Origin: Candidatus Limnocylindrales bacterium | GTDB lineage: Bacteria; Chloroflexota; Limnocylindria; Limnocylindrales; CSP1-4 | DNA length: 64,000 nucleotides | Direction of reading: 5' to 3' | NCBI GenBank assembly: GCA_038245845.1 | Contig: JBBRRZ010000004.1 | Coordinates: 39,142-103,141, forward strand | Shown: positions 30,743 to 34,405 of the stretch, one piece after another | Numbering within the stretch: the first letter of the stretch is position 1 | How the letters are laid out: every line of letters starts with the position of its first letter | Position numbers and translations under genes: made by a program | Notes under the pieces: generated by a model | Databases searched by the model: none | Told to the model about the DNA's origin: nothing | What the model saw: only the letters and a program-made list of their open reading frames with translations

Positions 30743-31510
30743 TCAGCCGCCCGTCGTGTGGTCGCGGATGAAGTCGAGCGTCCGGGCCCACGCCTGGGCG
30801 GACTGGTCAGCGAACTCGTCGGCCTTGCGATCGAAGAACGAGTGGGGCGCGCCCTCGTACACGACGATCTCGTCGTCGCGTCCGGCCGACCGAAGCGCCG
30901 CGGCCCAGGCCTCGCGAACCTCGGCGGTGATGCCCTGGTCCGCGCCGCCGACGATCGACAGCAGGGGAGCATCGAGTGTGTCCACGACATCGGCGGGCGC
31001 CGGGGTGTCGTTGCGCGCGGGCCCGGTGGGCCAGCCGTAGAAGGCGACGACGCCCGCGAGGTCGAGGCCGAAGCCTGCGCTGAGCAAGGCCAGTCGGCCG
31101 CCCATGCAGAACCCGGTCGTGAACAGGCTCGTCGAGGGTGTCGTGGCGCGCAGATGGGTCGCGGCGGCAGCCGTGTCCGCCCGAAGGGTGGCGAAGGTGG
31201 TCCGGGCGACGTGGGGGCCGAATTCGAAGCCCTCGCCGCGGTCGCCGATGCCGGCGGTTCGGGCGAAGTAGTCGATGGCGATGGCGTCCACGCCGTGCTC
31301 CGCGAAGCGCAGCGCGAGCTCCCGGTAGTAGCCGTGGAGGCCGCGGACGTCGGGAAGGATGACGATCCCGGCACCCGTTGGCTCGGCCGCGTGCGCCTCA
31401 TAGGCGGCAAACCGGGTGCCATCGGCGGCGACGAGGACGAGCTCCTGCGCGTCGAGCGCACCACCGGTGATCTCCGGGATGGGCGGGTGCGAGTCATGGT
31501 CGAAGCACAT
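30743..31510 (-). CDS. Dienelactone hydrolase family protein
   Basis: LPDVRGL, GFCMGG nucleophile, GGADQGI, YEGAPHSFFD. Confidence 0.92.
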   Translation of the reverse strand: MCFDHDSHPPIPEITGGALDAQELVLVAADGTRFAAYEAHAAEPTGAGIVILPDVRGLHGYYRELALRFAEHGVDAIAIDYFARTAGIGDRGEGFEFGPHVARTTFATLRADTAAAATHLRATTPSTSLFTTGFCMGGRLALLSAGFGLDLAGVVAFYGWPTGPARNDTPAPADVVDTLDAPLLSIVGGADQGITAEVREAWAAALRSAGRDDEIVVYEGAPHSFFDRKADEFADQSAQAWARTLDFIRDHTTGG

Positions 31511-31589
31511 GCAGCGGTCTCCTGGGACGCGGGCGCGGTCGTCGTTCCGGGACAAGTGTGCGTGAAGTGGCGCGCTTCATGCTGGGGTC

Positions 31590-32408
31590 ATGGACTTCGG
31601 GCGGGCGGGACGAGCGGTTCGGGCGCTGCGAGTCCGCCGTGGCTGGCGCCAGGCGGATGTCGCGGAGCGGGCGGAGATCGGCCGTTCGGTCGTCGGGCGG
31701 ATCGAGCGCGGCGAGGTGGCGGGTCTTTCGCTGGACGACCTGGCGTCGGTCGCCCTCGCGCTGGGCGCCACCATTGACCTCCAGGTCCGATGGCAGGGCG
31801 AGGCGCTGGACCGGTTGCTCGACGAAGGGCATGCGCGGCTGGTCGAGGCTGTGGTGCGGGAGCTGGCGGCGCTCGGCTGGGACGTGGCGGTGGAGGTGTC
31901 GTTTGCCGGCGGCGGCGAACGGGGATCGATCGACGTGCTGGCGTTCCACCCCGCGGAGCGCGCGCTGGTCGTGATCGAGGTCAAGTCCGTCACGCCGGAC
32001 ATGCAGTCGATGCTCATGGGGCTGGACCGAAAGGGCCGGATCGGGGCGACCCTTGCCCGCGACCGTGGCTGGGACGCACGCGTCGTGGCGCGGGTGCTGG
32101 TGCTGTGGGACACGCGAACGAATCGACGGCGGCTGGAGCGGGTCGCGTCGACGATCGCGGTTGCCCTGCCGGGCGGCACGCGCGAGGTCCGGCGATGGCT
32201 CGCGGATCCGGCAGGGGCGTCGGTCTCCGGCGTGTGGTTCGTGCCCCATGTCCAGGGGCTGGACGGGACGGGGATCCGCCGACGGCGTGTGCGGGTCCCC
32301 GAGGGCGCCGACGGGACGTCCGGTCCGGCGCCTGCGAGTGCGGCGCTTGCCCCGGCTGGTTCGCCCGGACCGCCCGCTCGCCGTCCGGATCCCCCACGCG
32401 GAGGGTAG
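31590..32408 (+). CDS. XRE-family HTH fused to PD-(D/E)XK nuclease-like domain
   Basis: LRVRRGWRQADVAERAEIGRSVVGRIERG (HTH); H..LVE, VEVSF, GSIDVLAF...LVVIEVKS (D...ExK). Confidence 0.82.
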   Translation: MDFGRAGRAVRALRVRRGWRQADVAERAEIGRSVVGRIERGEVAGLSLDDLASVALALGATIDLQVRWQGEALDRLLDEGHARLVEAVVRELAALGWDVAVEVSFAGGGERGSIDVLAFHPAERALVVIEVKSVTPDMQSMLMGLDRKGRIGATLARDRGWDARVVARVLVLWDTRTNRRRLERVASTIAVALPGGTREVRRWLADPAGASVSGVWFVPHVQGLDGTGIRRRRVRVPEGADGTSGPAPASAALAPAGSPGPPARRPDPPRGG

Positions 32409-32718
32409 TCGGGCGCTCATCGGCCGTGCCTTCGCGTCAGATGTCCAAGGGGTGGCCCGTATCTGGCGTTCCGTCACGCTCGTTGCGGCCCGACGCGGTG
32501 GCCCACGCACGAAGCCGACGTCCGCGACCCGAGATCGCCCAGTCGAATCCGGCGCAAGTGCACCCCATGGACGCTAGTCAAGACCTGTTCGCCTACGGGC
32601 CACCAGGTGGACCGCTGTCAGGTCCGCGGGCACCGATGGCGGGTTACGGTCCACCAGCTGGACCGTTGCCGGTTGCAGCCCAGGTTGGCGCCGATACGGT
32701 CCAAGGGTTGGACATCTG
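32250..32718. repeat. Array of six GTCCA-N5-TGGAC-type palindromes; outer intergenic copies form an imperfect inverted repeat
   Basis: Copies at 32250, 32443, 32558, 32598, 32649 and 32699 (0-1 mismatch); 32438-32468 and 32689-32718 are reverse complements at 25 of 31 positions. Confidence 0.8.
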
Positions 32719-32725
32719 CCGGAAG

Positions 32726-33012
32726 CCGGGCGAGGGCGGGGTCCCGGCCGAGGGCGGGGTCCCGGGCAAGGGCGAGCACCCGGGCAAGGGCGACAAGCGA
32801 GCACGCGGGCGAGGGCGAGGACCCGGCCGAGGGCGGGTCCCGGGCAAGGGCGAGCACCCGGGCAAGGGCGACAAGCGAGGACCCGGCCGAGGGCGGGGTC
32901 CCGGGCGAGGGCGAGGACCTGGCCGAGGGCGGGGTCCCGGGCAAGGGCGAGCACCCGGGCAAGGGCGGGCGAGGCCCCGGCCGAGGGCGAGGCCCCGGGC
33001 GAGGGCGAGGAC
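32726..33012. repeat. Degenerate G-rich 18-bp tandem repeat (CCGGGCGAGGGCGAGGAC-like), 15 units
   Basis: Parsed by eye, with a higher-order block of three units recurring. Confidence 0.92.
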
Positions 33013-33087
33013 CCGGGAGCCGGGCGGGAGGCCGGCGAGGCGGCGAACTCGAGGCCGAGGGCGGCCGGCCGCCCGAGCCTGCTCCGC

Positions 33088-33093
33088 TAGAAT
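33088..33093 (+). promoter_or_regulatory. -10 element TAGAAT of probably leaderless lysC transcript
   Basis: TAGAAT 7 nt before ATG 33101; no Shine-Dalgarno. Confidence 0.6.
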
Positions 33094-33100
33094 GCCGCCC

Positions 33101-34405
33101 ATGCCCAACCCGCTCGTCGTGATGAAGTTCGGCGGTTCGTCGGTGGCGGGCGCGGAGCGCATCAAGCGGGTCGCGCGCCGCATCGCCCGCGAGCGCACGC
33201 GGGGGAGCGACCTCGTCGTCGTCGTGTCCGCGATGGGCGACACCACCGACGAGCTCCTCTCGCTCGCCGCCGCCATCACCGACGACCCCGATCCCCGTGA
33301 GCTCGACGTCCTTCTCGCCACCGGCGAGCACCAGAGCGCGACGCTGGTGTCGATGGCCCTCCAGGCGATGGGCGTCGCCGCGATCAGCCTCACCGGCCCC
33401 CAGGCCGGCATCACCACCGATGGGCGCTACGGCAAGGCGCGAATTGCGGGCATCGATCCGCGCCGTGTCCGCCGCGAGATCGCCGCGGGCAAGGTCGTCA
33501 TCGTCGCGGGCTTCCAGGGGATGAGCGTCACGCCGCTCGACGCGATGGACAACTCGCCCACGGCGAGCGACGTCCACGGCGCGGAGATCACGACGCTCGG
33601 GCGTGGCGGTTCCGACACGACCGCCGTCGCACTCGCCGCCCAGCTCATGGCGGACCGCTGCCAGATCTTCACCGACGTGAAGGGCATCTACACCGCCGAC
33701 CCCCGCATCGCGACCGACGCCCGCCAGCTGTCCGTCATCGGCTACGAGGAGATGATGGAGCTCGCAAACCAGGGCGCCCAGGTGATGCAGGTCCGGGCCG
33801 TGGAGCTCGGCTGGGTCAACGACGTCGTCATCGAGGTCCTCAGCTCGTTCGAGGACGCCCCCGGCACGCAGATCAGGGAGGACCCGCTCGTGGAGCAGCG
33901 GAACAAGGTCCGGGGCCTCGCCCATGACCGCAACGTCGCCAAGATCACGCTCGTCGGCGTCCCGGACCAGCCAGGTCTTGCGCGCAGCGTCTTCGGACCG
34001 CTGGCGGACGCCGGCATCAACGTCGACATGATCGTCCAGAACGTGGGCCACGGCGGCTCCACGGACCTGTCGTTCACGATCCCGCGCGTCGAGCTCGCGA
34101 AGGCGAAGCGCATGCTCGAGCCGATGATCCGAGACCTCGGCTTCCGGGACCTCACGACCGACTCGAGCGTCGCGAAGATCTCGATCGTCGGGGCGGGTAT
34201 CCAGAACGCCCCGGGCTACGCCGCCAGGATGTTCGGGACGCTGGCGGACGCCGGCATCAACATCGAGATGATCTCCACGTCCGAGATCCGGATCACCACG
34301 ATCATCGCCGAGGACCGCGTGGAGGAGGCCGTCCGTGCACTCCATGCAACCTTCGAGCTCGAGCAGCCCGAGAGCATCGAGGCCGCCGGCGCGACGGCTG
34401 GCTGA
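33101..34405 (+). CDS. lysC: Aspartate kinase with two ACT domains
   Basis: VMKFGGSSV, VVSAMGDTTD, TTLGRGGSDTTA, TDVKGIYTADP, MISTSEI. Confidence 0.96.
   Translation: MPNPLVVMKFGGSSVAGAERIKRVARRIARERTRGSDLVVVVSAMGDTTDELLSLAAAITDDPDPRELDVLLATGEHQSATLVSMALQAMGVAAISLTGPQAGITTDGRYGKARIAGIDPRRVRREIAAGKVVIVAGFQGMSVTPLDAMDNSPTASDVHGAEITTLGRGGSDTTAVALAAQLMADRCQIFTDVKGIYTADPRIATDARQLSVIGYEEMMELANQGAQVMQVRAVELGWVNDVVIEVLSSFEDAPGTQIREDPLVEQRNKVRGLAHDRNVAKITLVGVPDQPGLARSVFGPLADAGINVDMIVQNVGHGGSTDLSFTIPRVELAKAKRMLEPMIRDLGFRDLTTDSSVAKISIVGAGIQNAPGYAARMFGTLADAGINIEMISTSEIRITTIIAEDRVEEAVRALHATFELEQPESIEAAGATAG

Follow-up and report, generated by a model that had tools for sequence, protein, structure and literature searches.

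An XRE-HTH/PD-(D/E)XK-fold protein gene of Limnocylindrales linked to an array of palindromic boxes that recurs as an intergenic five-box cassette

In REPIN-RAYT systems, doublets of REP units (repetitive extragenic palindromic sequences) are associated with a REP-associated tyrosine transposase, RAYT (Bertels & Rainey 2011, PMC3116915). A comparable arrangement with a different enzyme is described here from a Candidatus Limnocylindrales bacterium (Chloroflexota). In the window, i.e., the whole stretch of 64,000 nucleotides that was analyzed (contig JBBRRZ010000004.1 of assembly GCA_038245845.1, positions 39,142 to 103,141), a gene for a protein that joins an XRE-type helix-turn-helix (HTH) domain to a PD-(D/E)XK nuclease-fold domain, referred to below as the HTH-nuclease, is trailed by an array of palindromic boxes built on GTCCA-N5-TGGAC. 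The two arrangements share short, over-represented extragenic palindromic units that form inverted doublets with a short spacer, a chromosomally fixed gene with adjoining repeats, dispersed intergenic copies, and genome- or gene-specific variants, the cognate pairing being a prediction in the present case. They differ in that the enzyme described here has an XRE-HTH/PD-(D/E)XK fold instead of being a Y1 (HUH, IS200-like) transposase; the repeat is a fixed-length five-box cassette, not a doublet, and is present in six copies versus tens to hundreds; the repeats lie only 3' of the gene, overlapping its coding end, in a family with many paralogues, each of which has its own repeats; and no intermediate of mobility was observed. 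Since the defining enzyme and the copy number differ, membership in the REPIN-RAYT class fails.

The repressors of the XRE type that act on several sites (HipB, HigA, and C.Esp1396I on its 35-bp operator, PDB entry 3clc) resemble the HTH-nuclease in their HTH fold (Z scores of 9 to 11.6) and in having dyad targets with a variable center, arranged side by side. In contrast to the operators of those repressors, the sites described here are found within the gene and downstream of it rather than in its promoter, the protein has a nuclease-fold domain whose catalytic motif is intact, and the whole multisite block is duplicated around the genome. XisH, NucS/EndoMS, and AF1548-type proteins match the structure of the C-terminal domain best, and no family membership of this domain was found at the sequence level; XisH has no HTH fusion, whereas NucS has another N-terminal domain and recognizes mismatches rather than sequence boxes. 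The bacterial interspersed mosaic elements (BIMEs) of E. coli are clusters of alternating REPs; they likewise are composite intergenic arrays with palindromic units in both orientations and conserved inter-unit motifs. The cassette described here has five boxes in a fixed arrangement and is linked to a gene. A full-text literature search, which did not cover supplements, found no published description of this protein-repeat pairing.

The favored reading, to which somewhat better than an even chance is given, is that the HTH-nuclease docks at the boxes and that the two make up a REP/RAYT-like partnership with another class of enzyme at its base. It merges two options offered in a preliminary description of the locus, HTH operator sites and a selfish REP/RAYT-like element, into one: predicted cognate binding sites that have also been copied to other intergenic places. 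All six dyads listed in that description are present. Exact GTCCA-N5-TGGAC is found three times in the window (at 32250, 32649, and 32699) versus 0.07 expected, and none of 100 shuffled sequences reached three. The other three dyads are imperfect, with a single base off in one arm (GTCCA-N5-TGGCC at 32443, GTGCA-N5-TGGAC at 32558, and GGCCA-N5-TGGAC at 32598). Comparisons with further copies and with other genomes support all six. As previously noted, TACGGKCCA-N5-TGGAC is common to the last three of the six dyads, whose starts are spaced by 51 and 50 bp. The inverted orientation of the 32443 copy, which pairs with the 32699 copy to form bounding inverted repeats, also stands; however, the arms (32435-32463 and 32693-32721, 79% complementary and 229 nt apart) are 29 nt long rather than 31 bp.

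The array starts inside the 3' end of the gene and extends ∼480 bp downstream (Table 1). No box was found upstream of the start codon, either in the window or in the related locus L001; all boxes lie at or past the 3' end of the gene. The in-gene box is a diverged copy in the source genome and has counterparts at the matching position in orthologues, such as the strong in-gene box of L074 (nhmmer E value of 5e-4). Box 2 of this home locus was missed by the nhmmer profile search at E values of up to 10. The flank of box 5, GGACATCTGCCGG, is kept at orthologous loci across the genus, and the left and right ends of the home cassette have in common a perfect 11-bp core, CAGATGTCCAA. Scans of positions 31400 to 33200 for sigma-70 promoters and intrinsic terminators returned no matches.

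Table 1. Coordinates of the HTH-nuclease gene, its boxes, and the adjoining tandem repeat (window positions)
Feature	Position	Strand	Details and evidence
XRE-HTH/PD-(D/E)XK-fold protein gene	31590..32408	+	272 aa; open reading frame, Pfam, AF2 model, fold matches
Box 0, reversed dyad GTCCAGGGGCTGGAC at 32250-32264	32243..32272	-	In open reading frame, directly after the GVWF codons; exact dyad
Box 1, reversed, cassette left end	32435..32463	-	nhmmer E 0.0013; inverted-repeat pair; six-cassette alignment
Box 2, reversed, degenerate (GTGCA-N5-TGGAC; GCTAG replaces CGTAG)	32550..32577	-	Aligns with box 2 of the five other cassettes
Box 3, forward	32592..32621	+	nhmmer E 1.4e-4; cassette alignments
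Box 4, forward, nearly perfect 8+8 palindrome ACGGTCCA-N5-TGGACCGT	32643..32672	+	nhmmer E 3.1e-5; exact dyad
Box 5, forward, cassette right end	32692..32723	+	nhmmer E 1.6e-4; exact dyad
GC-rich tandem repeat, period 18 (∼15 copies; higher-order period 78)	32726..33017	.	Tandem Repeats Finder (TRF); between the cassette and the aspartate kinase promoter

Two features lay beyond the view of the preliminary description: the motif is part of a cassette that is present six times in the genome, and an 18-bp tandem repeat follows the array. In the source genome (G000; 3.44 Mb, 71% G+C, 80 contigs, 87% complete, with the window on contig C4), the extended pattern TACGGKCCRNNNNNYGGAC occurs 22 times, versus 0 for the reversed control, which marks the motif as nonrandom. 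There are six cassette sites, the home locus, two on contig C3, and one each on C16, C18, and C25, all between called open reading frames. With the exception of one singleton, every nhmmer unit with an E value below 0.1 falls within these six cassettes, and the boxes total ∼27. The layout is the same in all six copies (reversed, reversed, forward, forward, forward): box 1 is followed by ∼75 to 100 bp of unrelated sequence, box 2, a short conserved spacer, box 3, and then boxes 4 and 5, ∼50 bp apart. Boxes 2 and 3 thus form an inverted doublet, whose short spacer (∼12 to 17 nt, depending on the choice of box ends) is kept between the cassettes in 6 of 6 copies.

The home cassette (32435-32723) is 289 bp long, and the others measure 278, 274, 229, 276, and 278 bp. 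The six cassettes align end to end, with a mean pairwise identity of 67% in box columns (including the variable 5-nt centers) versus 43% in spacer columns; the boxes and the total length are conserved, and the spacers are randomized. The box consensus, gaTACGGKCCR-N5-YGGACmkyTGyCGG, is asymmetric and can be read as a pair of half-sites, predicted to be occupied by an HTH dimer, next to an outer flank that is conserved. A second rendering of the stretch after YGGAC is c-g-n-T-G-n-C. The ends of the cassette are inverted (TCCGGCA..GGTCC and GGAC..TGCCGGA). On C3, a pair of forward boxes consists of identical tandem copies of 50 bp, so local duplication is a further way in which the arrays grow.

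The genes next to the cassettes in the source genome encode aspartate kinase, a MetE-like protein, a ProV-like ABC ATPase, a pyridoxal phosphate (PLP)-dependent decarboxylase, a luciferase-like monooxygenase with a GNAT acetyltransferase, and an HTH protein. A common regulon was considered and set aside, as these neighbors suggest no single pathway. On C3 (177829-179215), two cassettes flank a single GNAT acetyltransferase gene, with a divergent HTH_28-type regulator on one side and the luciferase-like monooxygenase on the other, a layout that itself looks like a cassette. A separate 20-bp palindrome, ATACAACCATACGGTTGTAT (C3:177775-177795), found immediately upstream of the HTH_28-type regulator's start codon, is probably that regulator's own operator.

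The gene and the array belong together: orthologues carry the array, sites that lack the gene also lack the array, and paralogues have inverted repeats of their own. The gene order dlh (dienelactone hydrolase), xre (the HTH-nuclease gene), ask (aspartate kinase) was found in 7 of 11 loci from relatives; two more were cut by contig ends, and the remaining two were other loci. In each of the nine syntenic loci that were read, a reversed box lies just past the GVWF codons; a doublet of one reversed and one forward box comes next, then one or two forward boxes that end in GGACATCTGGCGG, and after these GC-rich tandem repeats that vary in sequence between genomes. The comparison with empty sites, suggested in the preliminary description, is provided by genomes G006 and G012, in which dlh and ask are adjacent, with a spacer of ∼130 to 150 bp that contains no gene, boxes, or tandem repeat; G006, which consists of one contig, encodes no family member at an E value of ≤1e-10. 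Among 71 family loci from other genomes (L129, which contains Ns, was left out), an inverted partner (at least 15 of 18 matches) of the 75 nt past GVWF was found 95 to 545 nt downstream in 30 loci, versus 11, 0, 1, and 4 loci in four control windows inside the gene; at a threshold of at least 16 of 18 matches, the count was 9 loci versus 0 in each of the four controls. The distance to the partner is mostly 130 to 260 nt, and the arm sequences differ between subfamilies.

Paralogues show the same association. In L030, an in-gene reversed unit is accompanied by three forward copies of quite different sequence. Among the paralogues of the source genome, an 8-mer repeated at least five times was found in the first 500 bp downstream of the gene in 5 of 10 cases and in the upstream region in 0 of 10; the genome-wide rate of such repeats is 1.4% of 13,649 windows. 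The compact nuclease-plus-repeat module of the preliminary description is therefore borne out by orthologues, by paralogues, and by joint presence and absence, and it proves more general than could be seen from the single locus.

Several other arrangements were observed next to paralogues. Boxes of the GTGAGTCA type (80 in the source genome) cluster at only three places (C6:128797-129092, C24:46-166, and C19:26-186), two of them directly downstream of related HTH-nuclease paralogues and the third at a contig end. In one paralogue subfamily (C7:110850-111000 in the source genome, L029 in G055, and L036 in G015), the gene is followed by a conserved cluster of GTGGAC(A/G)A, e.g., TGTGGACAA, and then by a relatively AT-rich stretch. 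The GTGGAC and TGTCCACA boxes after two paralogues are DnaA-box-like, but a replication origin was rejected, as dnaA is located on contig C15 (56394-56876) with a box cluster of its own; the GTGGAC(A/G)A cluster could be a second DnaA-box region or part of a split origin. At L017 (G005:C7:7200-10900), several hundred bases after the paralogue form a long, near-perfect palindrome with a partial inverted second copy of the gene, which represents a genuine inverted duplication or else a fold-back of the assembly.

The boxes vary between genomes, and the variants next to the gene appear to match the dispersed copies in the same genome. The pattern typical of the source genome occurs 22 times there, 9 times in G005, 6 times in G017, and once in G044, with no matches in G052, G055, G014, and G003. 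In the single-contig genome G055, the orthologue is accompanied by boxes with different arms, and the corresponding pattern was found 9 times in that genome (4 matches fall at the xre-ask locus from which the pattern was derived, and 5 are spread over three further loci; none for the control) and 0 to 2 times in four other genomes. Of the 19 loci with ask downstream, 10 carry boxes of the source-genome type (nhmmer E value of ≤1) and 9 do not. All 9 readable proteins from the former group have a recognition helix of the SR[STA]x[V]GR type, and the six loci read in the latter group combine altered helices with their own box variants; one such combination, seen in two genomes, is SRSVVWRVERGR with GCGCAC..GTGTGC. 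The outer flank CATCTG(G/C)CGG stays constant throughout. Co-variation of the motif with the recognition helix, which the preliminary description had proposed as a check, is thus seen in a qualitative form: the helix and the box arms appear to change together.

Dispersed cassettes in relatives (G005, G017, G013, and G002) are also intergenic and have the reversed-then-forward order, some of them between convergent genes. The 11 proteins flanking the cassettes of the source genome had no matches in 12 cassette loci from relatives. The spacer between a MerR-type regulator gene and the proV-like gene is ∼530 bp long with the cassette in the source genome and ∼80 to 120 bp long without it in G002, G022, and G051, and its promoter-proximal 35 bp are conserved in all four; the comparison points to either a gain in the lineage of the source genome or a loss in the others. 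At the PLP decarboxylase locus, G002 has one box-like unit in the orthologous spacer, and four other genomes have different neighbors and no boxes.

The HTH-nuclease consists of an HTH domain (approximately residues 3 to 63), a nuclease-fold domain (approximately residues 79 to 219), and a disordered tail (residues 226 to 272). Two Pfam models, HTH_3 (E value of 3e-9) and HTH_31 (E value of 1e-8), both above the cut-off, identify the N-terminal domain as a Cro/C1-type HTH, whose fold matches include HipB, HigA (HigA2), and C proteins (C.AhdI), with Z scores of 10 to 11.6. An AlphaFold (AF2) model based on 35 homologues (mean predicted local distance difference test [pLDDT] score of 82) shows a helical HTH (residues 3 to 57), a weak linker, a confident alpha/beta domain (residues 79 to 219, with pLDDT mostly >90), and a tail beyond GVWF that is predicted to be disordered (pLDDT <50 for residues 226 to 259). 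In the alignment of these homologues, E102, D115, E130, and K132 are invariant, and D115, E130, and K132 make up the D..ExK motif, which is therefore intact, as the preliminary description held. An R-x-R-V-R motif in the tail is nearly invariant in the same alignment; it occupies residues 231 to 235 (window positions 32280-32300), past the in-gene box and within an otherwise variable disordered region, and may be an extra DNA-contacting arm.

The closest structural matches of the C-terminal domain are XisH (2inb; Z score of 10.2 over 111 residues) and NucS (2vld; 9.3), followed by AF1548 (1y88; 9.2), EndoMS (5gke; 9.2), and Can2 (8bao; 8.9). The top Foldseek match was the Shedu protein SduA (8ps5, DUF4263), with an E value of 6e-5 but a TM score of only 0.21, and no Shedu model was among the ten PADLOC and seven Pfam matches with E values of ≤1. 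According to the model, the domain is a restriction-endonuclease-like PD-(D/E)XK alpha/beta fold with a D...(D/E)xK motif, and metal-dependent cleavage is its predicted activity. In searches of Pfam, NCBIfam, PADLOC, and PDB sequences, the HTH domain alone was recognized, with no family membership for the nuclease-fold domain at E values of ≤1; weak library matches of the protein were to YhcG_C (E value of 0.3), Upx (0.097), and PDC-S02 (0.008 to 0.035). Protein atlas clusters list it only as "hypothetical protein" from Chloroflexota, and close homologues at NCBI are named "Candidatus Limnocylindrales" or Chloroflexota. The nuclease domain alone has 889 relatives with E values of ≤1e-10 among representatives of 50%-identity clusters; the best 150 of these mostly comprise ∼200 to 300 residues, and in many of them the domain begins close to residue 75. 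The 80 genome loci that were retrieved all bear titles of metagenome-assembled genomes of the Chloroflexota type, bar a few with other labels, and there are many paralogues per genome (up to 12 matches).

If the boxes are indeed docking sites, the following sequence of events can be envisaged. The HTH domain would bind the boxes as dimers, each box comprising two half-sites, and the fixed five-box layout would serve as a platform for a multi-dimer complex on a phased array. The array next to the gene would be the home copy, and the dispersed cassettes would be copies recognized in trans. The nuclease domain might nick or cut in or beside the boxes, as suggested by the invariant catalytic motif, and repair of the break could copy cassettes to new sites, homogenize the boxes, and drive local tandem duplications. 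Such break repair would explain how copies could arise in the absence of target duplication, the agreement of home and dispersed boxes within a genome, the 50-bp tandem duplications, and possibly the unstable tandem repeats next door. A more far-reaching version, which is possible but on balance doubtful, is that the HTH-PD-(D/E)XK proteins of Limnocylindria are nucleases of a new, sequence-guided class, which generate, maintain, and disperse multi-box cassettes of their own by break-induced copying, a second, mechanistically independent invention of a gene-repeat symbiosis of the REPIN-RAYT type with many co-evolving paralogous protein-cassette pairs per genome.

A number of observations weigh against the docking-site reading. 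Box binding by the HTH-nuclease, its nuclease activity, and a causal role of the protein in the spread are all predictions from sequence and structure comparisons. The copy number is low (the six cassettes and their boxes counted above) and the spacers are fully diverged; therefore, any spread must be old or rare. At none of the six cassettes can a target-site duplication be seen, and the five dispersed cassettes adjoin none of the paralogues in the source genome. Some box variants show no dispersal or specificity: the G052-type pattern had 3 matches versus 2 for the control, i.e., no dispersal beyond control, and the G044-type pattern had 6 versus 4, although two of the matches are 50 bp apart on another contig. 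The joint change of recognition helix and box arms is confounded with relatedness. A test for recurrent exact dyads at the 71 loci, which is crude and weak, gave 7 downstream versus 3 upstream. The conservation of the in-gene box may be partly at the protein level, since it overlaps the codons of a partly conserved D-x-R-G-x-D stretch. Finally, the neighboring tandem array may be incidental, given that TRF found 729 merged tandem-repeat loci (score of at least 50, mostly with periods of 10 to 29 bp) in the whole source genome, which is unusually repeat-rich for its size.

The chief rival, itself unlikely, takes the HTH-nuclease for a conventional transcription factor of the XRE family whose regulon is small: the boxes would be operators, the nuclease-fold domain would function only in oligomerization or sensing, the cassettes would regulate their neighbors, and nothing would be mobile. 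The similarity of its HTH to those of the HipB, HigA, and C-protein repressors, which bind dyad operators, in some cases at multiple sites, fits this view, as do the conservation of boxes and spacing over drifting spacers, expected of binding sites under selection, and the absence of stem covariation. Five of the six cassettes in the source genome lie 60 to 370 bp upstream of a gene start, with their forward boxes towards the gene. However, the gene's own promoter region has no box and the home array is downstream of the gene, and the location of paralogue arrays and of relatives' dispersed cassettes between convergent gene ends as well argues against a purely promoter-linked role. The recurrence of one five-box layout and length at six sites points to copying rather than to independent evolution of sites, and the sites differ between species, as seen from the 11 flanking proteins without counterparts. 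The promoter-like TAGAAT of ask is intact in genomes without the array, and the catalytic D..ExK motif is invariant.

Another possibility, rather improbable, is a miniature inverted-repeat transposable element (MITE) or REP-type element that is moved by an unrelated transposase and whose link to the gene is incidental, e.g., through an insertion preference near the gene's 3' end. The inverted cassette ends, the intergenic sites that differ between species, and the presence or absence of the cassette in the MerR-ProV spacer, if counted as a gain, would suit such an element. Nevertheless, the cassettes have neither visible target-site duplications nor near-identical copies, with spacer columns as diverged as noted above, and a search for Y1/RAYT transposases (PF01797) gave no matches in six genomes of the genus, whereas the control search matched 6 of 14 reference genomes. 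The copy that is kept across the genus is the gene-adjacent one, even where dispersed copies are few or absent; paralogues at 44 to 54% identity have different inverted repeats in the same position relative to the gene; and the gene and the array are jointly absent.

Equally improbable is site-specific inversion, in which the DNA from the in-gene box to one of the forward boxes would be turned around, thereby switching the protein's C-terminal end or a promoter close by. Throughout the family, the stop codon and the part of the gene that encodes the tail are enclosed by inverted repeats, the two ends of the home cassette share the perfect core described above, and the nearest nuclease fold, XisH, is titled in the PDB (2okf, 2inb) as an fdxN element excision controlling factor. 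Simulated inversions, however, gave tails that stop from a few to ∼45 residues past the junction and lack R-x-R-V-R, and the loss of this conserved motif counts against a shufflon. No recombinase gene was found among the neighboring open reading frames, the arms are only 79% complementary, and contigs covering the region, which are a poor test, contain no strand-switch joint.

Least probable is a structured RNA, the third option of the preliminary description, either a 3' untranslated region element or a guide or scaffold RNA for the nuclease like those of RNA-guided transposon nucleases: the overlap with the gene's 3' end, the many short hairpin-capable dyads, and the long-range complementarity of reversed and forward boxes are outweighed by the lack of an Rfam match in the array at E values of ≤1, an unremarkable minimum free energy for the 496-nt stretch (z = -0.25, with 43 of 100 shuffles folding at least as well), a closing stem position (R at +8, Y at +14) that varies independently on its two sides (7 A-T, 4 G-C, 5 G.T, and 6 A.C among 22 units), a G opposite A within the stem in 7 of 22 units, conserved stems with free loops, the reverse of the usual RNA pattern, and a protein with a DNA-binding HTH and no known RNA-guided architecture.

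The surroundings of the home array also deserve a brief description. The hypervariable 18-bp tandem repeat probably belongs to the locus without being part of its functional core. The locus is covered by contigs of a source-like sequencing run (X1). The array and the tandem repeat vary between strains, as a contig from another run (X3) that is ∼89% identical skips positions 32540-32683 and 32722-33073 and has other letters between them. Within positions 33088-33103, the sequence TAGAAT is located 7 nt before the ATG codon of the aspartate kinase gene, inside an CTCCGCTAGAATGC motif, and it is unchanged, together with its spacing, in every orthologous locus that was read, including those without the HTH-nuclease gene, which suggests that the ask transcript is leaderless.

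For the biology of these organisms, the HTH-nucleases form a family that is both large and unannotated, in a lineage that is a major one in soil and freshwater. Their arrays and the neighboring tandem repeats break short-read assemblies, with several paralogues found at contig ends, and may serve as strain markers. Partnerships between repeats and enzymes are known mainly from REP/REPIN sequences and tyrosine transposases; an HTH-guided PD-(D/E)XK partnership with the same logic, if true, would mean that such associations arose more than once, and the specificity of the protein (its recognition helix) and its DNA target (the box arms) could then be read side by side across many paralogues.

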